Positions 29,088-51,886 are shown, counted from the first letter of the stretch. The stretch: 64,000 bases of DNA from Candidatus Eiseniibacteriota bacterium (GCA_046598045.1 JBKJJJ010000162.1:17-64016), one strand, 5' to 3'. A program made the numbers and translations. Notes: generated by a model from the sequence alone, not told the origin.

Positions 29088-29732
29088 CTAGCGATACAGC
29101 CCCTTCACCCGCCCCCACGTCCCGCTCAGGGTCGGTGTTGCGGCCTCGCAGTACCCCATCCCCGCCAGATTGATCGTGTACGGGTTGAGCGGCTGGACGT
29201 TTGGCGTTCCCGCCCAGCCGGTCAGGGTGCCGGCCGCGCCCGGGCCGTCCGGGGAGCGCTGACCGAGCGGGCCGGACAGCCAGATCGCGCCGCCCGCCGA
29301 TTGCGCGTCGAAGCCCGAGTAGGACACCGCGACGTAGTAGGTCCCCGCGGGGAGCGAGGTGTTCGGGGCGACGATCGTCTTGCTGCCGAACTGGCAATTC
29401 TGGTTCAGGAAGACACCGTTCCCGAGCGCGTCGAACAGCCAAATGTTCGGCCCGCTGATCACGACGCACTGGAGCTGGACGATGGGCTGGCCGGCCGGCG
29501 GGACCGACAGGAGGTTGACGCAGTACAGGTCGACGTCCGTGGGCGAGCCGAGCGCGCCGGTGATCTTTTGCAGGGGGCCGTTCCCGACCGTGCTCTGCGC
29601 GGAGGCGACGAGGTCCCCCGCGTCCCCGGATTCGGCCCAGGTCTGGGCGCGGGCGACGGGGGGGGCAGCCAGCGTGAGCAGCAGGGCGGCGGCGAACGCC
29701 AGGAGGCGGGAATGCTGTTGAATCGTGGCCAT
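29088..29732 (-). CDS. Secreted PPC (pre-peptidase C-terminal)-like domain protein with C-terminal ...GTWGRVKGLYR tail (family member E)
   Basis: 214 aa from internal ATG; signal peptide MATIQQHSRLLAFAAALLLTLAAPPVARAQ; 'DVDLYCVNL...GTYYVAVSYSG' resembles PPC domain; ends with W-G-x-V-K-x-x-Y-R. Confidence 0.65.
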   Translation of the reverse strand: MATIQQHSRLLAFAAALLLTLAAPPVARAQTWAESGDAGDLVASAQSTVGNGPLQKITGALGSPTDVDLYCVNLLSVPPAGQPIVQLQCVVISGPNIWLFDALGNGVFLNQNCQFGSKTIVAPNTSLPAGTYYVAVSYSGFDAQSAGGAIWLSGPLGQRSPDGPGAAGTLTGWAGTPNVQPLNPYTINLAGMGYCEAATPTLSGTWGRVKGLYR

Positions 29733-29798
29733 GGGGGCTCCCGAATCGATCTGCGGCCGGGGGGATCCCGGCCGCGGCCAACGAGCATAGCACAAACC

Positions 29799-29897
29799 CC
29801 GGTGCGATCGGCGCTCGCCCCCGACGCCCCGCCCCGCCCGCCGCGCCCGCCCCGCCCGCCGCGCGAGCAGCGCCAGCCGAAAACAGGACGCAGCCTC
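29799..29897. repeat. Duplicated segment (copy of 31899..31969, with internal 21-bp tandem duplication of CCGCCGCGCCCGCCCCGCC)
   Basis: ~70 nt shared string ...CGACGCCCCGCCCCGC...CGCGCGAGCAGCGCCAGCCGAA[AA/GG]CAGGACGC[A/G]GCCTC...; second copy lies inside 3' coding part of 31794..32780. Confidence 0.7.
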
Positions 29898-29951
29898 ACG
29901 GTGTGGAGCGGCGTCGGCCCGCGGGGCGGGTGGGTGGCGCCCTGGAACTGG

Positions 29952-30557
29952 TTAGAGCACTCGCCGCATGATCGCCCGCCCCTTCGACACGCGCTTGACC
30001 TCGACGAAGCCCGCTCTCACGAACGCACTCACCGTGCCCTGGTAGGCATAGGCGTCGGGCCAACGCGCCTTGGGGTCGCTCGGGTAGCCCTCGAGAATTC
30101 TGCCCTTCCTGCGGCGGACGAACCTCGCGGCAGCCTCGAGCAGCGCGACGGTGACCCCCTGCCTGCGATACGGCCGCGCGACGTAGAAGCACGTGATCGA
30201 CCACACCGGCTGGTCGTCGATCGGCTGGAGCGTGCGCGAGCGCGCGAGCCCGCCGTACTCCTCGCGCGGGGCGAGCGCGCACCAGCCGACAGGCGTCCTG
30301 CCGACGTAGGCGAGCAGGCCGGGCTCGTCGCCGTCCTTTGCGAGCTTCTTGAACGCACGCTTGTTGCCTTTGCCGCCGTCGGCGCAACCGGCGGCCCACT
30401 CCGCGCGCGAGCGGCGAAAGAACATGCACCAGCAGCCGCCGTACGCGCCCTTGGGACCGAACACGGTCTCGAGGTCGGGCCAGCGCTCGGGTGTGAGTGG
30501 GCGGACCATGACGCGGACCGGCGGGGCCTTCGGCTTCGCGGCTCGCGGGGAGGGCAT
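29952..30557 (-). CDS. GNAT-family N-acetyltransferase
   Basis: 201 aa from internal ATG of ORF 29952..30779; 'GWCALAPREEY...RRQGVTVALLEAAARF' acetyl-CoA binding-like block. Confidence 0.6.
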   Translation of the reverse strand: MPSPRAAKPKAPPVRVMVRPLTPERWPDLETVFGPKGAYGGCWCMFFRRSRAEWAAGCADGGKGNKRAFKKLAKDGDEPGLLAYVGRTPVGWCALAPREEYGGLARSRTLQPIDDQPVWSITCFYVARPYRRQGVTVALLEAAARFVRRRKGRILEGYPSDPKARWPDAYAYQGTVSAFVRAGFVEVKRVSKGRAIMRRVL

Positions 30558-30567
30558 CGCTTCTGGC

Positions 30568-31500
30568 CTAACGGTAGGCGGACTTGATCCGGCCCCATGT
30601 CGCCACGCGTGCGGGCACGGGAGCGGCACCGAACACCTGGACCCGGTTGTTGCCCTTGTCGACGACGTAGATCCGGCCATCAGGCCCGACCGCAAGATCC
30701 TCGACCCTGTTGAATTGCCCGGGGCCCGAGCCCGCTGATCCGAATTGCCCCAGGAAAACACCGTTGTTGTCGTAGACACGAACGACGTTTCCGAGCTGAT
30801 CAGCTCCGTACACGTTGCCCGCCAAGTCGACCGCGAGACGGCCCGAGGCCGCGGGCCACCGCATGATCACCGCAAAGTTGGCATCGCGCTTGACGATCTG
30901 GGGCTGGGTCGCCCCGGGCGGATAATACTGCACGTGAAAGAGGTTTCCGGCGGCATCGTAGACGGCGCCGAAAAACGGATTTCCATCGCAGCGCTCCGGA
31001 GATACGAAGGCTCCGCCCGACGTGAATTTTCGAATGCATCCCGCGTTGAACTCGTACTTGAAGCACACGTTTCCGGCTGGATCCATGGTGACTTCCTGGC
31101 CGTACGAAGAAGTCGTCGCGGCGTTCCAGTAGTACTGATAGGTGCCATTCCCGTCGTACTTTTGGATGGTATGAGCCGCCTGCACGAATACGCTGCCATC
31201 GGCCGCGACGGTGAGATCCCCGATTTCGGTCATGGATCGCGCGTTGTTCCACTTCGTCACGAAGTGACCGCCCGCGTCGAACTTTTCGATGCGCTGATTG
31301 CCCCCGTCGAGCACGTAGACGTCGCCCGTGGGCCCGATCGAGATACTGCTCGGCGACGAGAACTGCCCGTCGCCTGAACCGAATGACCCGAAGCTGAACA
31401 GGAAATCGGTCGCGACCGCGTGCGCGGCGGTGAGCGGCAAGGACACCGTCACAACGACGGCCAACATACCGATCATGCGAGGCAACGCTCGGTGACCCAT
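30568..31500 (-). CDS. Secreted NHL-repeat beta-propeller protein with C-terminal ...ATWGRIKSAYR tail (family member F)
   Basis: 310 aa; signal peptide MGHRALPRMIGMLAVVVTVSLPLTAAHA; NHL-like repeats (GSGDGQF, GSGPGQFNRVEDLAVGPDGRIYVVD); same tail motif. Confidence 0.75.
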   Translation of the reverse strand: MGHRALPRMIGMLAVVVTVSLPLTAAHAVATDFLFSFGSFGSGDGQFSSPSSISIGPTGDVYVLDGGNQRIEKFDAGGHFVTKWNNARSMTEIGDLTVAADGSVFVQAAHTIQKYDGNGTYQYYWNAATTSSYGQEVTMDPAGNVCFKYEFNAGCIRKFTSGGAFVSPERCDGNPFFGAVYDAAGNLFHVQYYPPGATQPQIVKRDANFAVIMRWPAASGRLAVDLAGNVYGADQLGNVVRVYDNNGVFLGQFGSAGSGPGQFNRVEDLAVGPDGRIYVVDKGNNRVQVFGAAPVPARVATWGRIKSAYR

Positions 31501-31570: not shown

Positions 31571-31783
31571 CTAAATGCCTCTGCCGGATCCGGCAAAGTG
31601 ACCGCCATCGAACTGCTCGAAAGAAGTGGGACCTGCCTTGAACATGCACCAGCAGCAGCCGTCGGCGCCCTTCAGGCCGAAGGCGGTCTCGAGGTCAGGC
31701 CAGCGTTCGGGGGTGAGCGGGCGGACGGTGACGCGAAGACGTTTCGCAGGCGGACGCGGTGCGGCTGCTTTCGGGGCGGGCAT
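31571..31783 (-). pseudogene. Truncated duplicate of GNAT acetyltransferase N-terminus (remnant)
   Basis: First ~48 aa (MPAPKAAAPRPPAKRLRVTVRPLTPERWPDLETAFGLKGADGCCWCMF) ~70% identical to N-terminus of 29952..30557, then diverges to stop; ~150 nt nucleotide similarity to 30421..30557. Confidence 0.5.
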
Positions 31784-31793
31784 CGCGATTCGC

Positions 31794-32780
31794 TTATCGG
31801 TAGCCGGCCGCCAGCTCGCCGGCGATCGCCTCGAGGGCGAGGGCGCGGCGCTCGGCCTCGGCCGGGCCGCTCGGGAGCGCCGGGACCCACTCGAGGTTGC
31901 GCTCGCCCTCGACGCCCCGCCCCGCGCGCCGCGCGAGCAGCGCCAGCCGAAGGCAGGACGCGGCCTCCCAGGTCGCCACATGGCGCGGGGTGGCGAGCCC
32001 GCCGGCCAGGCGGTACGCCTCGAGCACCGCCGTCCCGTCGAAGCTCCCGCTCCCGTTCCTCAGCGCGCGCAGCCGCTCGTGGGCGAGCAGGTTCCCGAGG
32101 TCGAGCCCGATCGGCGCCAGCGCGGCCTCGTCCCAATCGATCCATCCCACCGGCGCGGCGGCCTCGGCCGGCGCCTCGGCGGGAGGCGCGATCACCTGTT
32201 CCTCGTTGAGATCGCGGTGGGCCGGCGCCGATCCAAGGGCATGCTCACTCTCGGCGAGCCGGGCGAAGAGCGCGGGCGTGAACGGCGGCAAGGCGCACGC
32301 GAGTTCCTCCGCGAGGTTCGTGAGCCCCTCGGCTTCGTGGTCAGCGGTCCACTCCCGGGACGGCCAGAGGGCACGCGCGGTGTCGGAACGTTCGAGCGCG
32401 GCCAGCGCGGCCACGCTCCTCGCCAGTTCGCTGGCGCGCCGGGGGCCTTCCGGGAGCGCGGAGAGCGCGGCGCCCGGAAACGCGCCCAGGACCAGGCGGC
32501 CCTCCGCGGCGCACGAATCAACCAGCGGCGGGACGCGCGGAAGGCGGGGCGCGTCGGGGCCACCCTGGGCGAGCGCCGCGGCCAGCGCCTGGTAGTGCGC
32601 GATCAGGCGCGCGGCGCGCTCGGGGCGGACGGTCTTGACGAACCAGCCCTCCTCCACCTCGCGCCGCCCGTCCACCAGGCGGGTTCGCCCGAGGAACATC
32701 GCCTCGCGGCGCCCGGGCCGGCGCTTGATCACGTGCTGCTCGAACGGGACGCCGCCCCGGTCCAGCGTGGGAAGGTTCAC
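31794..32780 (-). CDS. Phosphotransferase-family (APH/choline-kinase-like) protein
   Basis: ~328 aa; 'HRDLNEEQV' catalytic-loop-like and 'IDWDEAALAPIGLDLGNLL' motif; GTG start overlapping stop of upstream ABC gene (GTGA). Confidence 0.55.
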   Translation of the reverse strand: MNLPTLDRGGVPFEQHVIKRRPGRREAMFLGRTRLVDGRREVEEGWFVKTVRPERAARLIAHYQALAAALAQGGPDAPRLPRVPPLVDSCAAEGRLVLGAFPGAALSALPEGPRRASELARSVAALAALERSDTARALWPSREWTADHEAEGLTNLAEELACALPPFTPALFARLAESEHALGSAPAHRDLNEEQVIAPPAEAPAEAAAPVGWIDWDEAALAPIGLDLGNLLAHERLRALRNGSGSFDGTAVLEAYRLAGGLATPRHVATWEAASCLRLALLARRAGRGVEGERNLEWVPALPSGPAEAERRALALEAIAGELAAGYR

Positions 32781-34552
32781 GAGGCGCTCTCGGTCGTCCA
32801 CGCCCGCGCCTCCCAGAGCGCGCGGTACGGCTCCGACGTCGCGAGCAGCGTCTCGTGCCGGCCCTCGGCGACGACCTTTCCGCGCTCGAGCACGAGGATT
32901 CGGTCGGCTCCGGTGACGGTCTCCAGCCGGTGTGCGATCGTCAGGCAGGTGCGGCCCTTCGCCAGGCGGGCGAGTGCCTCGTGCAGGGCGCGGTCGGTCG
33001 TCGGGTCGAGCCCCGTCGAGGGCTCATCGAGCAACAGGATGGGCGCATCCCGGAGGAACGCGCGCGCGATCGCAAGGCGCTGCCGCTGGCCGCCCGAAAG
33101 CGTTGCGCCCCGTTCGCCGACCACCGTCTCGAGCCCGCGCGGCAGGGCGCGGACGAACTCATCGGCCTGCGCCTCGGCGAGCGCGTTCCACAAGGCCGCC
33201 TCGCTCGCCGCCGGATTGCCGACGAGCAGGTTCTCGCGAATCGTGGCGCCGAACAGCGCGGCCTCCTGCAGCACGAGCGCGATCTGCGCGCGCACGCTCT
33301 CGATGGTGAACGCCCGCGCGTCGCTGCCGTCGAGGCGGACCAATCCGCTCTCGGGATCGAAGAAGCGGCCGACCAGCCCGAACAGCGTGGTCTTGCCGGC
33401 GCCGGTGCGGCCGACCACCGCCACGTGCTCGCCCGGTCCGATCCGGAAGGACACGTGATCGAGCGCCGGCCGGTTCGGCTCGTAGCCGAACGACACGTCC
33501 TCGAACTCGATGCGCCCGAGCAGCCGGGGTGCCGGCACCGCGCCCGGGCGATCGGCCACCCCGGGCTCGGTGTCGAAGAGATCCTGCACCCGGCGCGCGC
33601 ACGCACTCGCCTTGGCATAGCGCTGCGCGGACTGCGCGAGATCGCGCATCGGCTTTTGCAGGCTGCGCACGTAGGACAGGAACACGACCAGGTCGCCCGC
33701 CGAGAGCGCACCGGCCCGCACGCGCATGACGCCCAGGTAGAGGACGAGCCCCGCCCCAAGGGCGGTCACGATCTCGACCGCGCGCGCCAGCAGCGCCTCG
33801 GCCCGGTTCGAGCGCAGCCCCGCCTCGAGGAAGCCCTCGCCCTCCATCTGCAGGCGTCCCGCAGCCAGGTCCTCGGCGCCGAACGCCTGGACGACCTGGA
33901 TCAGCTGGAGGCTTTCCCCCGCGACCGCGGAGAGCCGCCCCTCGCGCCGCCGCTGCGCGCGCGTGGCCTCGCGGATCGAGCGCACGTGGCGCAGCACGAC
34001 CAGCGCGAGGGCCGGCAGGAACACCAGCGCGGCGACGGTCAGCAGGGGGTCGAGCAGGGCGAGCACGACCACCATGCCGAGCACGAACGCGCCCCGCGCG
34101 ACGATCTGTCCCGACTGCGTGATCAGGAAGTCGCTCAGGACATTGAGGTCGCCGACCAGGTGGACGAGCAGCTCGCCCGAATGCCGTCTGCGGTGAAACG
34201 CGAGCGAGAGCCGCTCGAGATGGCGGAACAGGCGCAGCCGCAGCTCGAGGATCGCCTGCTGACCGGCGCGGGCGAGCACGATCGCCTGGACGTAGGCGAG
34301 CGCCCCGCCGACCGCGGCCACCAGCACGAAGCCGAGCGCGATCGCGAGCATCGCCTGGGACTCCGGCCAGTGCGCGAGGAACGCGAACGGCCCGAGGCGC
34401 GGGGGGTGTCCGTGCGGCGGCACCAGGAAGAGGTCGATCGCGAGCTTGAGCGGCCAGGGCTTGAACAGCTCGACCAGGCCTGCGCCGAGCAACGCCAGCG
34501 CGCTGGTCGCGAGCGCGCCGCGGTGCCGCCCCACGACGGGGCGGAACAGCAT
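32777..34552 (-). CDS. ABC transporter, fused permease/ATPase (MsbA/lipid-exporter type)
   Basis: 591 aa from internal ATG; 6-TM region then Walker A 'GRTGAGKTT', signature 'LSGGQRQRLAIARA', Walker B 'ILLLDEPSTGLD'. Confidence 0.85.
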   Translation of the reverse strand: MLFRPVVGRHRGALATSALALLGAGLVELFKPWPLKLAIDLFLVPPHGHPPRLGPFAFLAHWPESQAMLAIALGFVLVAAVGGALAYVQAIVLARAGQQAILELRLRLFRHLERLSLAFHRRRHSGELLVHLVGDLNVLSDFLITQSGQIVARGAFVLGMVVVLALLDPLLTVAALVFLPALALVVLRHVRSIREATRAQRRREGRLSAVAGESLQLIQVVQAFGAEDLAAGRLQMEGEGFLEAGLRSNRAEALLARAVEIVTALGAGLVLYLGVMRVRAGALSAGDLVVFLSYVRSLQKPMRDLAQSAQRYAKASACARRVQDLFDTEPGVADRPGAVPAPRLLGRIEFEDVSFGYEPNRPALDHVSFRIGPGEHVAVVGRTGAGKTTLFGLVGRFFDPESGLVRLDGSDARAFTIESVRAQIALVLQEAALFGATIRENLLVGNPAASEAALWNALAEAQADEFVRALPRGLETVVGERGATLSGGQRQRLAIARAFLRDAPILLLDEPSTGLDPTTDRALHEALARLAKGRTCLTIAHRLETVTGADRILVLERGKVVAEGRHETLLATSEPYRALWEARAWTTESAS

Positions 34553-34602
34553 TGCGAGTGCGCGATCCTCCCCGCGATCCGCGCCGTGCGGCTTGCCGCC
34601 AC

Positions 34603-35754
34603 TCAACACCGCTCTCCCGGCAGCGCGCGGGGCCGCGCGACCCAGCCCAGGATCGCGCGCGCCACCCCGCTCCAATCGAACTCCCGGCGCGCCCGCTGCC
34701 GCGCGGCCGCGCCCAGGCGTTCCCGCAGCGCGGGATCTTCCGCCAGCTGCACGAGCCCGTCCGCCAGGCCCGCGGCGTCGCCCGGCGACACCAGGAACGC
34801 GTCCTCGCCGTGCACGAAGCGCGCCGCCACCTGGCCGGCGCGCGGCGCGAGGATCGCGCACCCCGCGGCCGCGTACTCGTAGATCTTGAGCGGCGAGAAG
34901 TAGTAGTCGAGTGCATCGGGTGCGGCCACGATCGCGATGTCGACGTGGCGCAGGAACTCCGCCACCTCGGCGTGCGTCCGCGCGCCCTCGAATCGCACGT
35001 GCGGAGACAGTCCGCGCGCCGTGACATCGCCTTCGAGGCCTGCCCGCAGCGGACCGTCGCCCACGAGTTCGAGCTCGACGTTCGCGCCCCGACCCCTCGC
35101 CTGCGCGAGCGCCTCGACCACGAGTTCGAGGCCATGCCACGGCCTGAACGTCCCGACGAAACCCCCGCGCACAGGCCCTGCGGGATCGGCGGCGATGCGC
35201 GGCCGGTCGAACGCCGCGACGTCGACGCCGTTCGGCAGGACGCGCACGCGCGCGGGATCGGCGCCGCGCCGGATCGCGTAGTCCGAGAGCGCGTCGGAGA
35301 CGACATAGACGATCTCCGCGGCGGCGAGCAGCCGCGCCTGGCGCGCGGTCGTTTCCGCCGTGAGCTCGCGCCCGCGGAATCGTCGCGCTTCCTCATCGAG
35401 CGGCGAGTTGATCTCGACGATCAGGGGAACGCCGAGGCGGCGCGCCAGCTCGAGGCCGGCCTCGCTGTCGAGCGCGAGCCGCTCCAGCACCGCGTCGGGC
35501 GCCGGGCCGCGCGCGGCGGCGGAGAGCGCCGCCGTGAGCACGCGCGCGGGCAGGTCGCCGGGCCCGGTCACCGGCACCGCGTGCACTTCGACGCCGGGAA
35601 GCTCAGGGATCGCTCCCGGCCCGCAGGGCGCGACGCCGGTGACCTGCGCCTGCGCGCGCGCGAGCGCGCGCCAGAGCTCCGTGACGTGAATCGTGGCGCC
35701 CTTGACGGCATCCAGCCGAACGCCGGGATCCGCGCACAGCGCGAGGATTTTCAC
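34603..35754 (-). CDS. Glycosyltransferase family 4 (GT-B)
   Basis: GT4 C-terminal 'EGFGL'-type region (LKIYEYAAAGCAILAP) and N-terminal 'VKILALCADPG'; start set at GTG overlapping upstream stop, ATG at 35784 also possible. Confidence 0.75.
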   Translation of the reverse strand: MKILALCADPGVRLDAVKGATIHVTELWRALARAQAQVTGVAPCGPGAIPELPGVEVHAVPVTGPGDLPARVLTAALSAAARGPAPDAVLERLALDSEAGLELARRLGVPLIVEINSPLDEEARRFRGRELTAETTARQARLLAAAEIVYVVSDALSDYAIRRGADPARVRVLPNGVDVAAFDRPRIAADPAGPVRGGFVGTFRPWHGLELVVEALAQARGRGANVELELVGDGPLRAGLEGDVTARGLSPHVRFEGARTHAEVAEFLRHVDIAIVAAPDALDYYFSPLKIYEYAAAGCAILAPRAGQVAARFVHGEDAFLVSPGDAAGLADGLVQLAEDPALRERLGAAARQRARREFDWSGVARAILGWVARPRALPGERC

Positions 35755-36971
35755 GCGGCTCCCGCGAACCATGCGGCCAGGCACTCGACGTTGGTCGCGA
35801 GATCGAAGCGCTCCTCCGCACGCTGACGCGCGGCGAAACTCATGCGCGCGAGCGTCTCCGGGTCCCCCAACAGGTCGCCCAGCGCCCTGGCGAGCGCAAC
35901 CGCATCGCCGGGCTCGACCAATCGTCCCTCGATTCCGTCGCGAACGATTTCCGGATTGCCGGTGACCGGGGTCGTGACGCAGGGCACGCCCGATGCCAGG
36001 GCCTCGAGCAGGACGGTCGGCAGGCCGTCGCGATTCCCGTCGGCGGCCACGCGGCAGGGCAGGCAGAACACGGCAGCCTCCGCCATCAGTGCGCGCACGC
36101 GATCCTGGGATTGCGGACCCTCGAAGGTGACGGAGTCCGCGATGCCTTGATCGCGGGCGAGCGCGCGCAGGCGTGCGTCCTCCGGCCCGTCCCCCACCAG
36201 CACCAGCCGGGCGCGCGGGATCCGGACGCGCACCGCGGGCCAGGCCCTGAGCAGGTCGTCGAAGCCCTTCTTCTCGACCAGGCGTCCGACCGCGAGCACG
36301 ACGGGGTCGCGGGTTTCGATCGAAGCCCCCGCGGGCCGAAACTCGCGCAGGTCGACACCGTTGTAGAGCCGGCGCAGGTTGCCGTTCGCACCCGGGCCGT
36401 AGAGCTGCGCGAGGTAGGCCCGGTTGAAGTCACTCACCGTCACCACGAAGCTCGCCGCGCGCATCTTGTCGCGCAGGAGGTCGAGGTCGGTGCTGTCCTG
36501 GTAGATGTCCTTGGCATGCGCGGTGAACGAGAACGGCGTGCCCGTCAGCTGCGACGCGAACATGGCAACGCGCGAGGGCGCGCTCGCGAAGTGTGCGTGC
36601 ACGTGCTGCACGGGGTGCGCCGCCAGGTCCCGCGCCATCGTCGCCGCCTGGAAGTAACGCTTCCACGCCTGGTGCGTGCCGCGCGAGGCCACGTAGGAAA
36701 GCAGCGGAAACCCCCGTACTGCGTCCTGCCCGAGATAGGGAAGGATCGCGCCGACGCCCCGTGAGAGCCAGTGGATCGGGCGTTCGGGCAGGTACACCAC
36801 GCGCGCGCGCAGGCGCGCGAGCGCCGGATGGGTCGGGCTCGAGGCCAGCGGATGCTTGAGCGAGTAGACCGTGAGCGTGTGCCCGCGACTCTCGAGCTCG
36901 AGCAACTCGTTCAGGATGAAGGTCTCGGAGAACCGGGGGAACATCTTGACGACGTACGCGAGGGCACTCAT
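35751..36971 (-). CDS. Glycosyltransferase family 4 (GT-B)
   Basis: 406 aa from internal ATG (MSALAYVVKMFPRFSETF...); 'VGRLVEKKGFDDLLRAW...LVLVGDGPE...LPCRVAADGNRDGLPTVLLEALASGVPCV'; ATGA overlap with upstream gene. Confidence 0.8.
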   Translation of the reverse strand: MSALAYVVKMFPRFSETFILNELLELESRGHTLTVYSLKHPLASSPTHPALARLRARVVYLPERPIHWLSRGVGAILPYLGQDAVRGFPLLSYVASRGTHQAWKRYFQAATMARDLAAHPVQHVHAHFASAPSRVAMFASQLTGTPFSFTAHAKDIYQDSTDLDLLRDKMRAASFVVTVSDFNRAYLAQLYGPGANGNLRRLYNGVDLREFRPAGASIETRDPVVLAVGRLVEKKGFDDLLRAWPAVRVRIPRARLVLVGDGPEDARLRALARDQGIADSVTFEGPQSQDRVRALMAEAAVFCLPCRVAADGNRDGLPTVLLEALASGVPCVTTPVTGNPEIVRDGIEGRLVEPGDAVALARALGDLLGDPETLARMSFAARQRAEERFDLATNVECLAAWFAGAA

Positions 36972-38188
36972 CCGACGCGGGCCTCCATCCGCACGCCGCG
37001 CTCGGCCAGGAGATCGCGAATCTCGAGGCTGACCTGCGCCGCGCCGTCCGTGCCGAACGGCAGGTCGTCGCTGCGCGGGCCGAGTTCGAGCGCGAGCGCG
37101 ATCTCGGCGGCGAGCCGCTCCGGCGTGGCGTGGTCGGGATGTACGACCCGGCACAGGCCGCGCTCGGCCATGGCCTGGGCGCGAATCCACTGCTCGAGCC
37201 GCGGGGTCACCCGCGGCACGACGACGGCAGGCACGCGCGCCGACAGGATCTCGGTCATCGAGTTGTATCCCGCCATCGAAACCACCACGTCGGCGGCGTG
37301 GACCAGCCGCGGCAGGTCCGGCTCGAAGTCGATGACGTGCACGCGCTCGAGGCCGGCAGCGCGGTCCTTGAACGACTGCGCCTGGACGGCCGACATCAGC
37401 GGCCCGGTCACCGCCAGCAGGGTCGCATCCGGGGGCACGGGGGCCGCCCAGGCATCGAGCAAGGCCCCGATCACCCGCTCCCCGTCGCCGCCGCCGCCGA
37501 TGGTCGCGACCACGAGGCGTTCGCCCGGATCGATCGCGTGGTGGAGCCGCAGGTCCGAAGCCGCGGCGCACGGTTCGGACCACAGCACGTACTGCGTGAA
37601 GCGCACGCGCCCGTTGAGGCGCGGCGACAGGCCGTATTCCTCGGGCGAGGGGCCGACGCCGGGCGCGCCGTAGACCAGCACGCGGTCATAGGTGCGGTCC
37701 ATCCAGTCGAGCAGGCCGTCCCGCTCCCAATCCAGGCGCACGCGCACGGGATCGTCGATCACGTCGCGCAGGCCGAGCACCAGGCCGGCGGCGGGCTGCG
37801 CCTGGCGCAGGTGATCGAGCGGAACGCGCAGCTCGCCCGACATCCCGGCCGGTGCGTGGTCGACGATCAGGACGTCGGGCCGGAACGAGGACAGCGTCTG
37901 GTCGATCAGGCGCGAGCGGAAGTCCGCGACCTCGGCGAGCGACATGTCCAGCGAGCGCGCGCGGTAGGCGCCGTCCTCCGACTTGGTCACCGAGGGCACC
38001 TTGACGAAGTCGAAGCGCGGCGGCAGGGCAAACGCGTGCGCCTGGGGGGAGCCGGTCAGCGCCAGCAAATGCGCGTCGGGAAAGTCGCGCGCGAGCCGGT
38101 GAGCCAGCGTCAGGTTGCGGCGCAGGTGGCCCAGACCGAAGGTGTCGTGTCCGTAGAGCGCGATCCGAGGTCCGCGTCGCACGGTCAC
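36968..38188 (-). CDS. Glycosyltransferase, GT-B fold (GT28/MGT-like)
   Basis: 406 aa in 3' part of ORF 36968..39151; 'RIALYGHDTFGLGHLRR' N-terminal Gly-rich motif, C-terminal 'VVSMAGYNSMTEILSARVPAVVVPR' donor-binding-like region; GTG start overlapping upstream stop. Confidence 0.6.
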   Translation of the reverse strand: MTVRRGPRIALYGHDTFGLGHLRRNLTLAHRLARDFPDAHLLALTGSPQAHAFALPPRFDFVKVPSVTKSEDGAYRARSLDMSLAEVADFRSRLIDQTLSSFRPDVLIVDHAPAGMSGELRVPLDHLRQAQPAAGLVLGLRDVIDDPVRVRLDWERDGLLDWMDRTYDRVLVYGAPGVGPSPEEYGLSPRLNGRVRFTQYVLWSEPCAAASDLRLHHAIDPGERLVVATIGGGGDGERVIGALLDAWAAPVPPDATLLAVTGPLMSAVQAQSFKDRAAGLERVHVIDFEPDLPRLVHAADVVVSMAGYNSMTEILSARVPAVVVPRVTPRLEQWIRAQAMAERGLCRVVHPDHATPERLAAEIALALELGPRSDDLPFGTDGAAQVSLEIRDLLAERGVRMEARVG

Positions 38189-38868
38189 TCCAGCACCAGC
38201 ACACGAACACGGCTGGCGGCCTGCACGCCGGCGGGGAGCCGCAGCTTGACGCGCCAGGCATAGCGGCCGGCAGGCACCGGGGCGCCAACATAGGAGCCCT
38301 GGTTGCCGAGGCCGTTCCACCCCGCCTGGGACTGCGTCCCCTGGGGCGAGGCCCACGCCAGGACGCCCAGCGAGTCGTCCACGCGCGCACTCGACCAGAG
38401 ATAGGTGCCCTGGTATGCGCTCCACTGGAAAGTCAGCGCGCTCGAGAACGTGGGGCGCGCCTGGACCGTCGAATCGGCCGGCGCCACGAGATCGAAACCG
38501 CGCGCATCGACGTCGAACGGCGGAATCGCCACGGACTGGCCGGCGGTCGTGATGTCGAAGAAGAAGCGGACGTAACCCAGGTCCGAGGCCAACGTCGGCG
38601 AGACCTTGACCAGCCAGTGCCCCGGCCCGACGCCGGCGAATCCATACGCGCCCGCGCCGTCGGTCAGGGTCGAGTCGACCTGCGACTGTTCGAGATCGTC
38701 GTAGAGCTTGACCTTCATCCCGGGGACCGCCACGCCCGCGCGCACGACGGTGCCGCTCACGGTCTCGGGCGGCGACGGCCCGGCGACCTCGCGCGACGCG
38801 CCGCAACCGGCGAGCACGACCGCCAGGACGAGTGCGCCGGTCGCGCGGCCGCGATCGTTCAGCGTCAC
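38185..38868 (-). CDS. Lipoprotein with carboxypeptidase-regulatory-like (CarbopepD_reg) domain (cassette copy 1)
   Basis: 227 aa from GTG overlapping PQQ gene stop; lipobox-like 'LVLAVVLAGC'; 'GTVVRAGVAVPGMKVKLYDD...TDGAGAYGF'; 228-aa paralog at 47239..47925. Confidence 0.6.
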   Translation of the reverse strand: MTLNDRGRATGALVLAVVLAGCGASREVAGPSPPETVSGTVVRAGVAVPGMKVKLYDDLEQSQVDSTLTDGAGAYGFAGVGPGHWLVKVSPTLASDLGYVRFFFDITTAGQSVAIPPFDVDARGFDLVAPADSTVQARPTFSSALTFQWSAYQGTYLWSSARVDDSLGVLAWASPQGTQSQAGWNGLGNQGSYVGAPVPAGRYAWRVKLRLPAGVQAASRVRVLVLE

Positions 38869-40298
38869 GGCAGCACCACCAGGGCGCGGGCCACGCTCGC
38901 GCCGTCGGCGGACAGCCGCACCCGGTAGACGCCGGGAGCGACGCGCTGCCCGCGTCCATCCTCGAGATCCCACGACGCGGACTGTTCCGCGCCGGTGGCG
39001 TCGCCCTGCCACAACCACGCGACGATGCGGCCGCGCACGTCGAACACTTCAAGGCTCGCCGGGGCGCCGGCCGGAGCGCGGAAGGAGACGGAAGCACGCG
39101 TGCGCGCCGGCTGCGGGAACGGCGCGGCAAGCGCGACCCGCGCGGCCGCACCCGGCGCGCGCCCCACGCCGACCAGCGGCGGGCCGAGCGCGAACAGCTT
39201 GCCGTTCTTGGCGCCGAAGAACACCGCGCCGTCGGCCGCGATCGCGGCCGAGGAACGCACGGCCGCTCCGGCAGCGAACTTCCAGCGCAGGCTCCCCCCC
39301 GCGTTCAGGCAATAGAACGTCGAGTCATCCGACCCGAAGTAGACCGTGCCGTCGGCGGCGACGACCGGCGACGAGCGAATCACGTTACGCGCATAATAGC
39401 GCCACAGCACCGCGCCGTTCGCCGGCGCGAGCGCGGCCACGTGGGAGCCGGTCGCGACCACGATCGAGCCGTCGGCGCGGATCGCCGGCGTGGTGTCGAC
39501 GTTCGCGGTGTCGCTGAAGACCCACTTCAGGGCCCCCGTCGGCCGCAGGGCATAGAGGAAGCGGTCCTCGCTCCCCTGGTAGATCGTCGAATCCTCGGCC
39601 ACGGCCGGAGACGCCAGGTCGATGATGGCGCCGGTGGTCCCGAACCAGAGCTGCGTCCCCGCCGGCGTGATCGCGTAGATGCGCGCGTCGTAGGACCCGA
39701 CATAGATGTCCCCGAGCGGTCCGAGCGCGGGCGAGGAGCGCACGTTGCCTCCCGTGGGGAACGACCACACCGGGGCGCCGGCCGCGGTGAAGCGGTACAG
39801 CAGGTTGTCGCCATTGCCGGCCAGGACGTCCCCCGAGGGGAGGATCAGCGGCGAGGACCGGAACGTGCTCCCGCCGCGAAATTTCCAGCGCAGGGTGCCG
39901 CTCACGTTGACCGCGTAGAGCGTTGAATCCATCGAACCGACGTAGATCGTCCCATCGGCGGCCACCGCGGGGCTCGAGAACCGGATCGGCCCGTTGGTGG
40001 CGAACGCCCAGTGCAGCACACCGTCGGGCTGCACGGCATAGAGCTTTCCGTCGTCGCAGCCCACGTACACGGTCCCGTCCGCGCCGAGCGCGGGTGAAGA
40101 GCGGTCGATCGAGTCCGCCGCCTGGAAGATCCAGCGCAACTGCGGGGATGCCAGCCCCGGGGCGCTCGAGCGGCCCCGGTGCGCGGCACCGCCGTGAAAC
40201 ATCGGCCAGGGCGAGGGCGCGAGCTGCGCCTTCGACGGGGAGGCCGCCGCACTGAGCAGCAGGGTCAGCAGGACAATGGAGTTCCATCGGGATCGCAT
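38865..40298 (-). CDS. Secreted PQQ-like beta-propeller repeat protein with T9SS-type C-terminal domain (cassette copy 1)
   Basis: 477 aa from internal ATG (signal MRSRWNSIVLLTLLLSAAASPSKAQ); repeated 'DGT.Y.GS.D..LYA' PQQ/BamB-like units; C-terminus '...LEVFDVRGRIVAWLWQG...APGVYRVRLSADGASVARALVVLP'; paralog of 47922..49370. Confidence 0.75.
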   Translation of the reverse strand: MRSRWNSIVLLTLLLSAAASPSKAQLAPSPWPMFHGGAAHRGRSSAPGLASPQLRWIFQAADSIDRSSPALGADGTVYVGCDDGKLYAVQPDGVLHWAFATNGPIRFSSPAVAADGTIYVGSMDSTLYAVNVSGTLRWKFRGGSTFRSSPLILPSGDVLAGNGDNLLYRFTAAGAPVWSFPTGGNVRSSPALGPLGDIYVGSYDARIYAITPAGTQLWFGTTGAIIDLASPAVAEDSTIYQGSEDRFLYALRPTGALKWVFSDTANVDTTPAIRADGSIVVATGSHVAALAPANGAVLWRYYARNVIRSSPVVAADGTVYFGSDDSTFYCLNAGGSLRWKFAAGAAVRSSAAIAADGAVFFGAKNGKLFALGPPLVGVGRAPGAAARVALAAPFPQPARTRASVSFRAPAGAPASLEVFDVRGRIVAWLWQGDATGAEQSASWDLEDGRGQRVAPGVYRVRLSADGASVARALVVLP

Positions 40299-40305: not shown

Positions 40306-41241
40306 TCAGCGGGTTGCAGTGATCGCGAGTCCGATTTCGCGGACGGAATAGTCCTTGGAGCTGCGCGTCGAGGTCCGCCGGCGCCCGGCGCCGCGGACCT
40401 CCGCCCGCACGGGGCCGGCGAGGGCGTGGCCGATCGCGAATTCGCCCCGCCAGCGGTCGTCTTCGCGCCCGAAGTTGGACGCAAAGGGGCGGCCGGTCCG
40501 GTAATCCCGCAGCGCGAATTCGCCGAGGGCGCGCACCGAGATCTCCGCGACGGGTACGAACTCGCCTTCGAGGCGCACCGCATTTTGCGCGTAGGTGTAG
40601 AGGTCGGTCACGGAGTTCGCGTGCCGATAGACGTAGGACAGCGCGAGCCGCTTGCCCGGGTCGAAGCGGCGCTCGACCACGGAACGAAGGGTGGTTCTCC
40701 GGTCGTCGCGCTCGTTGGCGATCGGTATGAAATCCTCGTGGTCGCGGGTGAAGACGAACTGCGCCATCCATCCCGGGGCGGGCTCGTACCGGCCCTCGAA
40801 ACCCCAGTGGTCGCGATCGAGGCGGACATCGCCCCCGCTCCTGGGAAAGTACAGCTCGTCGCGCGTGAATCCGCCGAAGCCCCGCAGGCGAACCGGGCCG
40901 CGCCGCACGTCGAGGCCGAACTCCCAGCGGTCCAGGTTGCGTGCGCTCCAGGTGTCGTAGCGCTCTGCCGTCCAGCTCACCCAGGGCTTGACGCGCAGGC
41001 CGTGGGCCAGGCGGAACGTGACCTCGGGCTTGAGGACGAGACGCAGCCCGTTGTCCGATTCGAGCTCGGGCCCACCCGGGAACAGGTCGGTGGTGTGGAA
41101 GCCCGCGAGGGCGAGATCTCCGCCCCATGTCACCGCAGCCGCCGAAGCCGCCCTGGCCTGCGCAGGAAACATGGCTCCGCCCAAAAGGATGGAAACCCCG
41201 AGAATCAATGCAAGATGCGATCCGGGCAGGCGCAAGGCGAC
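40306..41241 (-). CDS. Putative outer-membrane beta-barrel protein (cassette copy 1)
   Basis: Alternating hydrophobic pattern, many Y/W/R; paralog of 49388..50335; start uncertain (GTG at 41241 gives signal-like LRLPGSHLALILGVSILLGGAMFPAQARA). Confidence 0.5.
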   Translation of the reverse strand, partial: VALRLPGSHLALILGVSILLGGAMFPAQARAASAAAVTWGGDLALAGFHTTDLFPGGPELESDNGLRLVLKPEVTFRLAHGLRVKPWVSWTAERYDTWSARNLDRWEFGLDVRRGPVRLRGFGGFTRDELYFPRSGGDVRLDRDHWGFEGRYEPAPGWMAQFVFTRDHEDFIPIANERDDRRTTLRSVVERRFDPGKRLALSYVYRHANSVTDLYTYAQNAVRLEGEFVPVAEISVRALGEFALRDYRTGRPFASNFGREDDRWRGEFAIGHALAGPVRAEVRGAGRRRTSTRSSKDYSVREIGLAITATR

Positions 41242-41308
41242 CTCATGAGCTGGTGTACAAACTAGTAAGTGGTTATCGCCTGCGATCAGATACAGCTTCA
41301 GCAGGAAA

Positions 41309-41527
41309 TCATGGCCACGTGGGGTTTTTTCGAATGGCGGGGTCGGACCCGGGGGAGTCGCCGGAAATCTCGGGCCGGAGAGCGGCCGCCAGGTCGAGGA
41401 TGCCCGCACCATCGTCCCGCGTGGCCTCCGGGACCGACGGGTCGATCGGCGCCGTGGTCAGGGACAGGCGCTCCAGTACTTGCGACGGCGACCAGTCCGG
41501 GTGCAGCGCGAGCCGCGCAAACACCGG
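41309..41527 (-). pseudogene. Remnant of subtilisin (S8) C-terminus, diverged copy of 3' end of 50517..51854
   Basis: '...LALHPDWSPSQVLERLSLTTAPIDPSVPEATRDDGAGILDLAAAL...' aligns with '...AAHPDWSRTKVLARMQQTATPIEPTVPGATTLFGAGILNLGAAL...'; no upstream catalytic domain. Confidence 0.45.
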
Positions 41528-41864
41528 AATGCGGCGATCCGTCGAGACCGATCCCCTCATGAATTTCCTCCTCGATGGGCGCGTTGCTCGGCCTTTGAGG
41601 TTACCACGGATTCGCCCGCCAGACGCGTCGGGCGATCCCTGATCCCGGAGCGCACCTCGAGCCGGTCGCCCGCGTCTCCCAACCATGTCCACGCGCCCGC
41701 GTTCCAGCGTTCGAAGGTCCTGCGCAGGCAGCGGTTGCGCGCGGACGCCAGGGCCTGACGGAGCGTTGCACCCTGCACGAGCCCTCCTGGAGAGAGCCCG
41801 GCCGTGGATCCAAGATGACAGCAGGACGCCCTGTCGGCTGCCGGTCCCGGATGGCGGCGGCACG

Positions 41865-44826: not shown

Positions 44827-44857
44827 GGGTTCGCGCACGAGGGCGACCTCCCGAAAT

Positions 44858-47235: not shown

Positions 47236-47238
47236 GGT

Positions 47239-47925
47239 CTATTGGAGATACAGCGTTCGCAGGTGCGTCGCAGCCTGCACGGAGTTTGGGAGTTGCAGCT
47301 TGACGCGCCAGTTGTAGGCCCCGGGCGGCAGCGCCTGGCCTGTGTACGAACCGCGGTTTCCGGTGCCGTTCCAGTCCGCCTGTGTGCTTCGGCTCCGGAT
47401 CGAGGTCCAGGCGATCACGCCATCGACGGAGAGCCGCGCACTGGCGGTCAGATAGGGCGCGCGGGACTCGCTCCACGTGAACCGGAGGGGCGCCGAGAAG
47501 GAGGGCAATGGTGCCACGGCGCCGTCCCCCGGTGTGAGGAGGGCCAGCCCGGCCGCGTCGACGTCCAGCGGCACGATCGCGATGGCATCCCCGGAATGGA
47601 GGACGTCGAAGAAGGCGCGCACATAGCCCAGATCTTCGGGGGCCGTCGGGGAGACCCGGATGACCCAGCGGCCAGGCGGAACGGCCTGGAAGCCATAGCC
47701 CCCCGAACCATCGGTCACGGTGGAGTCGATCGCGGCCTCGAGCGAGTCATGGACGGCAAGGAGGATGGTCATCCCCGCCGCAGCCACGCCGGCGCGCAAG
47801 ACCCGTCCCGTGACCTGCGGGCTGCCCGGCGGAGCCGTGACCGCCTGCTCACGGGCCAGTCCGCATCCGACGGTCGCGATCAGCATCGCTGCCACCGTCC
47901 AGCCTGCCGTGCGCCCGGGTCTCAC
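47239..47925 (-). CDS. Lipoprotein with CarbopepD_reg-like domain (cassette copy 2)
   Basis: 228 aa; lipobox 'LIATVGC'; paralog of 38185..38868; ATGA overlap with PQQ gene. Confidence 0.6.
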   Translation of the reverse strand: MRPGRTAGWTVAAMLIATVGCGLAREQAVTAPPGSPQVTGRVLRAGVAAAGMTILLAVHDSLEAAIDSTVTDGSGGYGFQAVPPGRWVIRVSPTAPEDLGYVRAFFDVLHSGDAIAIVPLDVDAAGLALLTPGDGAVAPLPSFSAPLRFTWSESRAPYLTASARLSVDGVIAWTSIRSRSTQADWNGTGNRGSYTGQALPPGAYNWRVKLQLPNSVQAATHLRTLYLQ

Positions 47926-49370: not shown

Positions 49371-49387
49371 GTCGGCCTCCTAACGGT

Positions 49388-50335: not shown

Positions 50336-50446
50336 TCGAGTCTCCACTCGCAGGGAACCCCCCGACCGCTTCGCGCCGGATGACGGCGACCGGCAGAGGC
50401 TGTCCCGTAGGTGGATCGAAGGGGGTTGGAAATACAAGACTCTCGC

Positions 50447-51854: not shown

Positions 51855-51886
51855 GACTCCGCTCCGGGGTGTGGGATCGATTCCGT

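Follow-up and report, generated by a model that had tools for sequence, protein, structure and literature searches.

Lipopolysaccharide (LPS) core is built by cytoplasmic glycosyltransferases (GTs) of family GT4 such as WaaG, with kinases of a protein-kinase-like fold (WaaP/WaaY) acting on the growing glycan and a half-size type IV ABC flippase, MsbA, as the exporter. In the Campylobacter Pgl/PglK and Helicobacter Wzk systems, several GT4 enzymes make a short oligosaccharide linked to undecaprenyl pyrophosphate, which an MsbA-like ABC protein of the same cluster flips, and MsbA-like ABC exporters dedicated to a glycan are also known as NdvA/ChvA (cyclic beta-glucan) and HepA (heterocyst envelope polysaccharide). 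Features of all these systems recur in a minus-strand operon that we analysed in a 64,000-nucleotide stretch of DNA from Candidatus Eiseniibacteriota bacterium (GCA_046598045.1 JBKJJJ010000162.1:17-64016; the whole stretch is called the window below), where a cassette of outer-membrane barrel, beta-propeller and lipoprotein genes runs into genes for three GTs, an ABC exporter (ABC1) and an APH-like kinase. We lean slightly towards reading it as a regulated synthesis and export operon for a phosphorylated glycan, which could be an oligosaccharide, a short polysaccharide or a glycolipid.

Judged by analogy, LPS core assembly with MsbA is the best mechanistic counterpart of the GTs, kinase and exporter, although the module has a dedicated outer-membrane barrel where LPS uses the Lpt bridge. 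Unlike the Pgl systems, the operon and its surroundings contain neither a priming phosphoglycosyl transferase nor an oligosaccharyltransferase or ligase, and kinases belong to the core here; models for PglK, PglH and PglJ score far under their cut-offs. A likeness to AlgE-type export lies in the relatives, in that the module of at least eight loci elsewhere, as well as that in E. coli, includes an Alginate_exp barrel and a nucleotide-sugar dehydrogenase. In contrast to the NdvA, HepA and AlgE systems, there is no synthase of the Cgs or Alg8 type, and the barrel in the window is an unrelated 14-strand barrel that comes with a lipoprotein. Neither the genes of the operon nor the conserved neighbourhood of its relatives contain Wzx with Wzy, Wzm with Wzt, a processive GT2 synthase, or OPX/PCP domains. 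An operon of GTs and an ABC exporter is ordinary as a kind; what is uncommon is a widespread module with obligatory APH-like kinases and a barrel of its own.

The cassette and the genes upstream of it also have described counterparts. Slam/type XI secretion (T11SS) outer-membrane proteins with adjacent cargo genes have been described for Proteobacteria (PMC8406197; PMC5449769), and the likeness to Slam (DUF560, SlipAM) consists in a 14-strand barrel encoded beside a lipoprotein and a secreted protein. We did not file the first barrel of the window (barrel 1) as Slam because it lacks the N-terminal periplasmic TPR domain; also unlike Slam, its neighbours are glycan enzymes and ABC exporters. 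In Myxococcus xanthus, DdvS/DdvA combines a sigma factor of the extracytoplasmic function (ECF) type with a zinc anti-sigma factor carrying TPR-CHAT, and DdvS promoters are bipartite, GTAA-N16-CGT (PMC11506125; PMC6061681); anti-sigma factors with TPR-CHAT have been reported only in Myxococcota and one Comamonas species (PMC11506125). In the window, too, an ECF-type sigma factor, an HxxxCxxC anti-sigma factor and TPR-CHAT are encoded together and the promoter-like motifs have 16-nt spacers, and craspase-linked sigma/anti-sigma pairs may be named as comparable. The resemblance to DdvS/DdvA is one of layout and not of detail: in Eisenbacteria the anti-sigma factor and TPR-CHAT are encoded separately, with an S8 subtilase as an invariable fourth partner, the motif has CCACYTR as its downstream half, and the associated genes are of envelope and export type rather than defence genes.

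The coupled operon and its enzymes

Genes were called by combining GC3 frame plots (G+C at third codon positions), open reading frame (ORF) analysis and a codon-usage gene caller, shadow ORFs being abundant in a window of 66-75% G+C; coordinates are collected in Table 1. An earlier reading of the same stretch, made from its sequence alone (the original prediction), had listed four overlapping start and stop codons, and all four were read in the sequence: GTGA at 38185-38188, ATGA at 36968-36971, and GTGA at 35751-35754 and 32777-32780. Two further overlaps were found, GTGA at 38865-38868 between the propeller and lipoprotein genes and GTGTTGA at 34603-34609 between GT4b and ABC1. Direct reading of the junctions gives six consecutive overlaps of 4-7 nt from propeller 1 to the kinase (40298 to 31794), so that the tight coupling claimed from the PQQ gene to the phosphotransferase over about 8 kb is borne out, unbroken, over 8.5 kb from propeller start to kinase stop. 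The kinase gene is present and coupled as proposed, but it lies outside the range of 32777-38188 that had been given for the operon. Likewise, coupling from the PQQ gene onwards holds, whereas the unit itself probably begins one gene earlier, at barrel 1, which has a conserved promoter-like motif of its own and is separated from propeller 1 by a 7-nt spacer without overlap.

Short overlaps are common in this genome, with 13 of the 40 same-strand neighbour pairs in the window overlapping by 1, 4 or 7 nt, and a single overlap is therefore weak evidence; the run of six matters mainly because the uninterrupted series is also preserved in the orthologous loci of relatives. Internal terminators separating the cassette from the GT genes had been named as an observation that would speak against one transcript, and no terminator-like site lies inside the GT genes. 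Against 6.1 expected from shuffled sequences, two such sites were found in 15.5 kb, both within the propeller gene, in a consensus scan that may miss sites in a genome of 70% G+C. An Rfam scan of the whole window returned no family at gathering score. Together these data support one co-directional unit with predicted translational coupling.

Pfam and NCBIfam agree with the labels of the original prediction at the level of fold or family. The first GT matches Glyco_tran_28_C (5.7e-11, 43.2 bits against a cut-off of 22), with no Pfam match to the N-terminal Glyco_transf_28, and scores 37.4 against the 250 of the murG equivalog. In the PDB, its family profile finds MurG (3.8e-15), then the GT1 enzymes YjiC and OleD and also MGD1 and UgtP, with all matches confined to the C-terminal donor-binding half (residues ~220-399). 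Its AlphaFold2 model (predicted local distance difference test, pLDDT, 91.2) is nearest to the folds of the GT1 enzymes OleI, CalG1 and UGT94 (template-modelling, TM, score ~0.6), while the OleI, Mgt and MGT models of NCBIfam yield 17-34 bits against cut-offs of 260-700. From sequence profiles and model we file this protein as GT1/GT28-like, within a large unnamed subfamily that probably has an acceptor domain of its own; an exhaustive profile search collected 2,509 clusters at 50% identity for this family (E<=1e-30).

Both further GTs have their N- and C-terminal Pfam halves above cut-off, which places them in GT4 by the CAZy criterion, and neither reaches a specific equivalog. GT4a matches Glycos_transf_1 at 1.5e-39 (135.7 bits) and Glyco_transf_4 at 1.9e-11 (44.7 bits), has BshA, PimB', PimA, MshA and WaaG as its nearest solved relatives, and reaches no NCBIfam equivalog cut-off, the best being EpsE with 180 bits against 400. 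The two halves of GT4b score 62.8 and 71 bits (1.2e-19), with the sucrose-phosphate-synthase-like Tll1590, PimA and MshA as nearest solved relatives. Members of the MurG, GT1, MGD1 and UgtP families act on lipids or small hydrophobic acceptors, and the enzymes nearest to GT4a and GT4b use small acceptors, often phosphorylated ones or lipid headgroups.

ABC1 has a generic architecture of ABC_membrane (1.5e-39) and ABC_tran (2.5e-30). MsbA_lipidA (TIGR02203) is its top NCBIfam model, with 401.7 bits against an equivalog cut-off of 602 (ABC2, its paralogue in the second cassette described below, has 479 bits), and no NCBIfam equivalog is reached, NdvA, HepA and PglK included. Its nearest bacterial structures are Sav1866, TmrAB, TM287/288, MsbA and BmrA, among which similarity does not discriminate. 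The protein is thus classified by sequence as a type IV/ABCB-like exporter that is not demonstrably MsbA.

The kinase matches Pfam APH (PF01636; 1.5e-6, 28.6 bits against a cut-off of 23.2) and gives no match to Kdo/WaaP (PF06293). Among 24 module-linked homologues, 23 match APH and one weakly matches Kdo/WaaP (0.0031); H188, D190 and D215 are invariant in this set and D217 is conserved in at least 90%, and most members carry the catalytic loop HRDxxxxQ, in which Gln replaces the Asn of many kinases. A single-sequence PDB search with the kinase found nothing, the matches coming from the 24-member profile, which retrieves APH(3')-VIII (3.3e-16) as well as corramycin, capreomycin and viomycin kinases, maltokinase, choline kinase and MTR kinase. 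A kinase of small-molecule or sugar type with an intact active site is predicted from these profiles.

The 3' part of the kinase gene and the genes beyond it contain two repeats. A 52-nt direct repeat of 92% identity lies at 29846-29897 and 31916-31967; the copy inside the kinase gene encodes EAASCLRLALLARR, and the other begins an unannotated ORF (29088-29951) with a weak match to the kinase hidden Markov model (HMM; E 1.7e-4) and no Pfam domain. About 50 codons from the start of the GNAT gene occur twice, at 30420-30515 and 31640-31735 (96 nt, 85% identity); the copy right after the kinase (31590-31783) hits a stop, and the complete GNAT gene lies at 29952-30560. The duplication flanks an NHL-repeat gene (30568-31476, minus strand) that relatives lack at this position and that looks like an insertion with target duplication.

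The enzyme core across bacteria and in Eisenbacteria

A pattern scan with one genome per species collected at least 593 relatives of the GT28-like protein, and 80 species-representative loci were compared with nine window proteins (loci are numbered with an L below). GT28-like, GT4a, GT4b and ABC genes are collinear in at least 21 of the 80 loci, from Nitrospirota, Acidobacteriota, Chloroflexota, Zixibacteria, Ignavibacteria, Actinomycetota, Cyanobacteria, Planctomycetota and Alphaproteobacteria, and a rearranged core occurs in five further loci that include Myxococcota and Binatia. In these loci the module spans at least 11 phyla, monoderm as well as diderm; Actinomycetota and Chloroflexota have no LPS. 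One to three APH-like domains follow directly after the ABC or GT4b gene in at least 30 loci, as detected with a small HMM, the kinase being too divergent for BLAST.

Fusions tie the enzymes to one another. A GT4b::APH fusion of 726 aa was called independently in L007 (GCA_040961345.1), and single stop-to-stop ORFs cover GT4b and APH in L015 and L019 also; in one case GT28-like and two GT4 enzymes form a single protein of 1,332 aa, in another GT28-like and GT4 are fused, and the wider family includes fusions of GT28-like to an NDP-sugar epimerase/dehydratase or to a receiver domain. To find recurrent partners, we grouped the ORFs from all loci into clusters and annotated those that recurred, counting among the full-core loci of the set compared. 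An Alginate_exp/DUF5666 barrel stands after the kinases in at least 8 loci, a CarboxypepD_reg protein was found in at least 5, a UDP-glucose/GDP-mannose dehydrogenase in at least 5 plus E. coli, an NDP-sugar epimerase/dehydratase in at least 4, and an upstream pair of PAS histidine kinase and OmpR-type response regulator in at least 12-13, at the place corresponding to that of the sigma, anti-sigma and TPR-CHAT genes in the window. Independent gene calls with precomputed Pfam domains bear this out: L006, for example, has the order CarboxypepD_reg protein, GT28-like, GT4, GT4, ABC, APH, Alginate_exp barrel, sulfatase-family protein, and L008 combines a double-APH protein, an Alginate_exp barrel and a CarboxypepD_reg protein. 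From partners and fusions, the module looks like a regulated assembly line using nucleotide sugars, often uronic, 6-deoxy or epimerised, and where an outer membrane exists it looks as though something is delivered through a dedicated barrel. The exported glyco-product that had been proposed is thereby supported in kind, as the core elsewhere precedes an alginate-export-type porin and a CarboxypepD_reg protein.

In E. coli, a collinear eight-gene version is present in 18 of 5,426 complete genomes, in the order GT family, GT4, GT4, ABC, APH family, phosphotransferase, alginate export family, nucleotide sugar dehydrogenase. It forms a 10-kb island bounded by insertion sequences (IS) on plasmids of 167-242 kb, and its proteins are 31-38% identical to those of the window. 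The same plasmids bear F4-like fimbrial genes and an S6 peptidase, and the genomes with the island come from cattle, food and a crow.

A shorter version of GT28-like and GT4 with other partners predominates in Roseobacter-group bacteria, Azospirillum and rhizobia among the loci compared. The rhizobial sub-type (Rhizobium johnstonii pRL11, L096; S. meliloti pSymB, L095) has a second GT28-like paralogue, a 904-aa ABC protein, a cyclic-nucleotide-binding protein, an adenylate cyclase and an opp-type importer, and that of Roseobacter sp. MED193 (L024) has a histidine phosphatase, a methyltransferase and a divergent MscS channel. The alphaproteobacterial sub-type is divergent and may be a cytoplasmic or osmolyte-type variant.

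Among the matches listed, the nearest species-representative genome is a Candidatus Eisenbacteria metagenome-assembled genome with a GT28-like protein of 71% identity; every Eisenbacteria match is metagenome-derived, with no cultured one among the records found. The recurrence of the operon in relatives, proposed as a check in the original prediction, was observed: relatives at 61-86% identity carry a single cassette and the order from barrel to kinase (L001, L002/L003, L004/L005, L009 and L093). The upstream part of their locus reads TPR protein, MnmA, ECF-type sigma factor, ~225-aa protein, TPR-CHAT and S8 subtilase, and after S8 follow barrel, propeller, lipoprotein, GT28-like, GT4, GT4, ABC, APH-like and GNAT; this order holds for every relative of the barrel clade whose context was read. 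The Rrf2-suf operon comes next in L001 and L002, and the flanks of the window match those of the relatives. By gene order this is a stable chromosomal site between mnmA and the suf operon, and not an island.

Two other Eisenbacteria loci inform on the role of the cassette. The Eisenbacteria-type contig L094 lacks the propeller and has its genes arranged as GT28-like, barrel, lipoprotein, GT4, GT4, ABC, APH-like; it is the strongest single evidence that barrel and lipoprotein, and not the propeller, would belong functionally to the GT module. The idea that a glycoconjugate is attached to, or required by, the secreted propeller finds no support, since L094 keeps barrel, lipoprotein and enzymes without it and the versions outside Eisenbacteria are also devoid of it; by this comparison the propeller is dispensable for the module. 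In L083, from another Eisenbacteria lineage, the genes are CHAT, S8, GT28-like, GT4, GT4, a double-APH gene and one for an Alginate_exp barrel. A single phylum thus uses either kind of barrel, and in the version of the window a lineage-specific 14-strand barrel and a lipoprotein would assume the outer-membrane role.

The outer-membrane cassette and the regulatory genes upstream

The AlphaFold2 model of barrel 1, computed from 20 sequences (pLDDT 87.8, predicted TM score 0.80), has one N-terminal helix and 14 strands and consists of a signal peptide and barrel only, with no TPR domain. Its best solved matches are OmpG (TM 0.62-0.68), CymA and FadL, fold similarity among barrels mostly mirroring strand number, and no Slam structure is among them; OmpG and CymA are monomeric sugar channels. 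The barrel family comprises 19 homologues, all at least 44% identical, of which one is named Candidatus Eisenbacteria, and it is by these matches confined to Eisenbacteria and lineage-specific. Barrel 1 has no Pfam match, SlipAM included, whereas barrel 2, which is 42% identical to it, matches SlipAM with 27.8 bits against a cut-off of 22; the orthologue in L090 was scored 'weak'. PDB-sequence profile searches with the barrel and with the lipoprotein were uninformative.

Lipoprotein 1 carries the lipobox LAGC, whose Cys is invariant in 8 of 8 aligned orthologues, a CarboxypepD_reg match (3.7e-7) that at 30.8 bits is slightly below the cut-off of 32.3, and a conserved C-terminal domain of unknown fold. 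The CarboxypepD_reg-like domain is of the same type as that of the larger periplasmic partner in other phyla. The lipoprotein always adjoins the barrel, L094 included, and its family is limited to this clade. Propeller 1 matches Beta-prop_ACSF4 (1.2e-44) and PQQ_2 (4.1e-27), its N-terminus MRSRWNSIVLLTLLLSAAASPSKA reads as a signal peptide, and its ~80-aa C-terminal domain comes close to TIGR04183 (residues 394-475; 1.5e-4, 21.6 bits against a cut-off of 23) and to FlgD_ig (3.4e-4, 21 against 27). A FlgD_ig/type IX secretion (T9SS)-type C-terminal domain of ~80 aa is common to five secreted-looking proteins of the window at 27-40% identity, FlgD_ig passing its cut-off in two of them; the set consists of two Kelch/galactose-oxidase-like proteins, one without Pfam domains and the two propellers. 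The shared tail suggests a common sorting signal of the organism.

The window holds a second copy of the cassette in front of another payload (a DUF1611 protein, an M36-like protein, a CapA-like PGA_cap protein and ABC2). The two copies are 42% (barrel), 59% (propeller) and 50% (lipoprotein) identical, and ABC1 and ABC2 41%. The single cassette of the relatives is orthologous to copy 1 (68-79% to L001); copy 2, at 41-56% identity to the cassette of every relative compared, has no orthologue among them. The copy-2 arrangement recurs in the metagenomic contig L090, and L091 has DUF1611, an M36::PGA_cap fusion and ABC without the cassette, divergent to sigma, anti-sigma, CHAT and S8 genes; between phyla, the DUF1611 protein shows 60-70% identity. 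Each payload ends with one of the paralogous ABC exporters, which agrees with an outer-membrane device shared by products of ABC export. Between ABC2 and barrel 1, in a gap of 629 nt, tblastn detects the relic of an S8 peptidase 3' end, 53-59% identical to the S8 C-termini of L001, L004, L005, L090 and the window's own S8 (50520-50705), and this stretch yields an 83-aa ORF (41309-41560) that has a strong ribosome-binding site. The relic looks like a rearrangement scar and not like a precursor peptide, and it implies that the arrival of the copy-2 block ahead of cassette 1 left the ancestral junction upstream of that cassette in place.

By aligning the regions upstream of barrel genes, we found the bipartite motif GTATY-N16-CCACYTR. 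It occurs exactly upstream of both barrel genes of the window and of the barrel gene in L001, L002/L003, L009, L090 and L093, with zero exact copies in the 88 other loci scanned; its chance expectation in the window is 0.22 with one mismatch allowed. A GAGG Shine-Dalgarno sequence lies 5 nt before the TTG of barrel 1. A one-mismatch copy (55480-55507, minus strand) overlaps the sigma gene, within its 3' end, and is immediately upstream of the anti-sigma and CHAT genes. The motif is probably an ECF-type promoter. The order sigma, anti-sigma, TPR-CHAT and S8 recurs in L001, L003, L004 and L093 and stands divergent in L091, and a CHAT-S8 pair precedes the GT module in L083. We infer that cassette and GT operon belong to the regulon of this sigma factor, with a start at ~41258.

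Elsewhere in the window, the genes at 7285-8175 and 9234-10127 (both plus strand) are paralogues, 66% identical over their full length of 296 aa.

Table 1. Positions of the features described, in the window unless another locus is given.
Feature	Locus	Position	Strand	Remarks
Barrel 1	Window	40306-41235	-	309 aa, TTG start 41235; NCBI call begins at ATG 41172
Propeller 1	Window	38865-40298	-	477 aa, secreted PQQ_2/BamB-like beta-propeller; optional cassette member; shared tail
Lipoprotein 1	Window	38185-38868	-	227 aa, lipobox and CarboxypepD_reg-like Ig domain
GT28-like/GT1-like	Window	36968-38188	-	406 aa, GT-B glycosyltransferase
GT4a	Window	35751-36971	-	406 aa, retaining GT4 glycosyltransferase
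GT4b	Window	34603-35754	-	383 aa, second GT4 glycosyltransferase
ABC1	Window	32777-34609	-	610 aa, half-size type IV (ABCB/MsbA-like) exporter
APH-like kinase	Window	31794-32780	-	328 aa, eukaryotic-like kinase fold
Promoter-like motif, copy 1	Window	41266-41293	-	GTATC-N16-CCACTTA, 31 nt upstream of barrel 1 TTG
S8 peptidase 3'-end relic	Window	41311-41510	-	in the ABC2-barrel 1 gap
Cassette copy 2 and payload	Window	41865-50435	-	between S8 and cassette 1
Promoter-like motif, copy 2	Window	50408-50435	-	
Barrel 2	Window	49388-50335	-	
Propeller 2	Window	47922-49370	-	shared tail
Lipoprotein 2	Window	47239-47895	-	
DUF1611 protein	Window	46093-47235	-	
M36-like protein	Window	44858-46096	-	
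PGA_cap (CapA-like)	Window	43678-44877	-	
ABC2	Window	41865-43580	-	
Regulatory/proteolytic unit	Window	50517-56165	-	upstream; kept in relatives
ECF-type sigma	Window	55431-56165	-	Pfam Sigma70_r2
Zinc anti-sigma	Window	54769-55434	-	221 aa, HxxxCxxC (ZASD motif); start overlaps sigma stop (ATGA)
TPR-CHAT	Window	51887-~54740	-	Pfam CHAT, TPR_12; no evident signal peptide or membrane helix, cytoplasmic-looking
S8 subtilase	Window	50517-51758	-	Pfam Peptidase_S8
Tail-sharing protein	Window	13880-17836	-	
Tail-sharing protein	Window	18322-19992	+	
Tail-sharing protein	Window	20227-22671	+	
Promoter-like motif	L001	6875-6902		
Promoter-like motif	L002	3453-3480		
Promoter-like motif	L009	1201-1228		
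Promoter-like motif	L090	1438-1465		
Promoter-like motif	L093	9967-9994		
E. coli island	L097 (NZ_CP012498.1)	1547-11578		
E. coli island	L098 (NZ_CP012500.1)	9001-19179		

Proposed function and competing explanations

Gene content, overlaps, conservation of gene order, fusions, kinase residues, lipobox, signal peptides and the barrel model were computed, and from them we infer the order of reactions, the identity of acceptor, sugar and product, the direction of transport, promoter activity and sigma dependence. On the cytoplasmic face, the inverting GT1/GT28-like and the two retaining GT4 transferases would work as one assembly line and join sugars into a short saccharide on an acceptor, which is most likely a small hydrophobic or phosphorylated molecule such as a lipid. 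Either this acceptor or the product in the making would be phosphorylated by the APH-like kinase. The type IV ABC exporter, as a homodimer, would then carry the product over the inner membrane, and the periplasm-facing lipoprotein and the 14-strand barrel would bring it to or through the outer membrane, a job that a CarboxypepD_reg protein and an alginate-export-type porin may do in other phyla. From barrel 1 through the kinase (41235 to 31794; ~9.5 kb, motif included) the genes would make up one transcription unit, probably transcribed from GTATY-N16-CCACYTR under the locus-encoded ECF sigma factor. As to the product, 'lipid-linked' and 'phosphorylated' are plausible attributes. The relatives of the enzymes lean towards a short phospho-oligosaccharide or glycolipid over a long polymer, and the AlgE-type partner and uronic-acid gene found elsewhere lean, by analogy, towards an acidic polysaccharide.

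Several other explanations have to be weighed. Housekeeping LPS assembly, in which the GT4 enzymes would build core on lipid A with a WaaP/WaaY-like kinase and with ABC1 as MsbA, has an identical logic of GT4, kinase and MsbA-like flippase, and it can point to MsbA_lipidA as the top model for ABC1 and to WaaG among the solved relatives of GT4a. However, ABC1 stays at 401.7 against 602, the kinases are APH with one of the 24 weakly Kdo/WaaP, neither a GT9 enzyme nor a Kdo transferase is encoded in the operon, Actinomycetota and Chloroflexota possess the collinear module, and the E. coli version is an accessory plasmid island in a species with waa and msbA genes of its own. This reading is ruled out by equivalog scores, kinase family and the monoderm and plasmid occurrence, and we leave it next to no probability. 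The original prediction had considered that it would fall if the GTs belonged to housekeeping LPS core synthesis irrespective of the cassette: the module does occur irrespective of the cassette, but it is not LPS-core housekeeping, because it is found in Actinomycetota and Chloroflexota, is mobile on E. coli plasmids and has kinases of APH and not Kdo/WaaP type. Modification and efflux of a toxic small molecule, for resistance or self-resistance, with GT and APH-type kinase inactivating it and the ABC pump expelling it, would agree with OleI and OleD among the structural matches of the first GT, with the match of the kinase to APH(3')-VIII and to corramycin, capreomycin and viomycin kinases, and with the resemblance of ABC1 to multidrug exporters. 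We nevertheless regard it as decidedly improbable, as the first GT is invariably accompanied by two GT4 enzymes, with which it can form a single fused protein, the core is repeatedly found with a nucleotide-sugar dehydrogenase or epimerase, an alginate-export porin and a CarboxypepD_reg protein, no resistance-type NCBIfam model (OleI, Mgt, MGT) is reached, and the chromosomal position between mnmA and suf is stable in relatives. A defence system (CHAT, GT4-conflict) was considered as well and rejected: the GT4-conflict model scores 23.4 against a cut-off of 26, which is not reached, and PADLOC-DB gave only generic subtilase and ABC-ATPase matches.

That the glycan is transferred to a protein, the secreted propeller or the lipoprotein, seems quite unlikely to us. 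The genes of both directly precede the GT genes in most relatives of the clade, and GT4 enzymes with a PglK-type ABC flippase are the layout of Campylobacter Pgl, with weak PglH, PglJ and SdgA matches; yet no oligosaccharyltransferase of PglB, PglL or O-antigen-ligase type is seen in the operon or its conserved neighbourhood, neither L094 nor any of the other phyla with the module has the propeller, and the lipoprotein family is confined to a clade while the module is far wider. A ribosomally synthesised and post-translationally modified peptide (RiPP), whose leader S8 would remove and which kinases and GTs would decorate before ABC export, would explain why S8 subtilases adjoin the module in L007, L066, L083 and the Eisenbacteria clade, and some lanthipeptide clusters contain APH-like kinases and GTs. 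It is scarcely credible given that no conserved small precursor ORF was found, that Pfam and NCBIfam scans show no lyase, cyclase or C39 peptidase domain, and that the E. coli island has neither protease nor peptide gene; a strong ribosome-binding site accompanies just one small ORF (41309-41560), and since this ORF is the S8 3'-end relic, the RiPP reading was rejected. Unlikely, too, is mere adjacency, by which barrel, propeller and lipoprotein would be an independent surface-protein system of Slam/T11SS-like kind that happens to lie upstream. The cassette is indeed found with a different payload (DUF1611, M36-like, PGA_cap and ABC2), barrel 2 matches SlipAM, and the GT module functions without this cassette elsewhere. 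Against it, L094 interleaves barrel and lipoprotein with the GT genes, GTGA overlaps run from propeller through lipoprotein to GT28-like, both payloads end in paralogous ABC exporters of 41% identity, and the module carries elsewhere a barrel and CarboxypepD_reg protein of its own in an equivalent role.

The reading as a phosphorylated-glycan synthesis and export operon has its own difficulties, which temper our preference. Type IV ABC exporters are promiscuous and their substrate is not readable from sequence; the relatives of the first GT include macrolide glycosyltransferases, and the nearest solved relatives of the kinase are antibiotic kinases, which leaves some probability for a small-molecule product or a part in detoxification. 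The operon contains no gene for a priming phosphoglycosyl transferase, polymerase, Wzx-type flippase, acyltransferase or nucleotide-sugar enzyme, which makes 'lipid-linked' and 'polymer' guesses. The barrel matches reflect mainly strand number, and a 14-strand barrel may be an uptake porin instead of an exporter. The promoter role of the motif is deduced from its conservation alone, and read-through from ABC2 over the 629-nt gap may occur. Literature searches on the module found no paper; a Zetaproteobacteria stalk study that came up was unrelated to it.

A further-reaching view, which we hold tentatively and at somewhat less than even confidence, is that the core and a dedicated barrel constitute a distinct, unrecognised and mobile route for a phosphorylated glycan or glycolipid, separate from the Wzx/Wzy, ABC-2 and synthase pathways, of which the Eisenbacteria version is rewired. 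As a part of that view, and just as tentatively, the rewiring would consist in a barrel/lipoprotein cassette, with or without the propeller, that also serves a second ABC payload, and in the switch formed by sigma, anti-sigma, TPR-CHAT and S8. One barrel/lipoprotein cassette on two ABC-exported payloads hints at a shared outer-membrane conduit, and the locus would be a DdvS/DdvA-like arrangement outside Myxococcota that is linked to envelope rather than defence genes, which it presumably controls.

Despite the breadth of the module, no curated equivalog model names any of its core proteins, and if the phosphorylated-glycan reading is true, the list of glycan pathways would gain a missing entry, a common envelope or extracellular glycoconjugate pathway that includes its own kinases. 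The 10-kb, self-contained and IS-bounded island of E. coli makes the question testable genetically and chemically. The product could matter for biofilms, desiccation tolerance, and phage and host interactions in soil bacteria.

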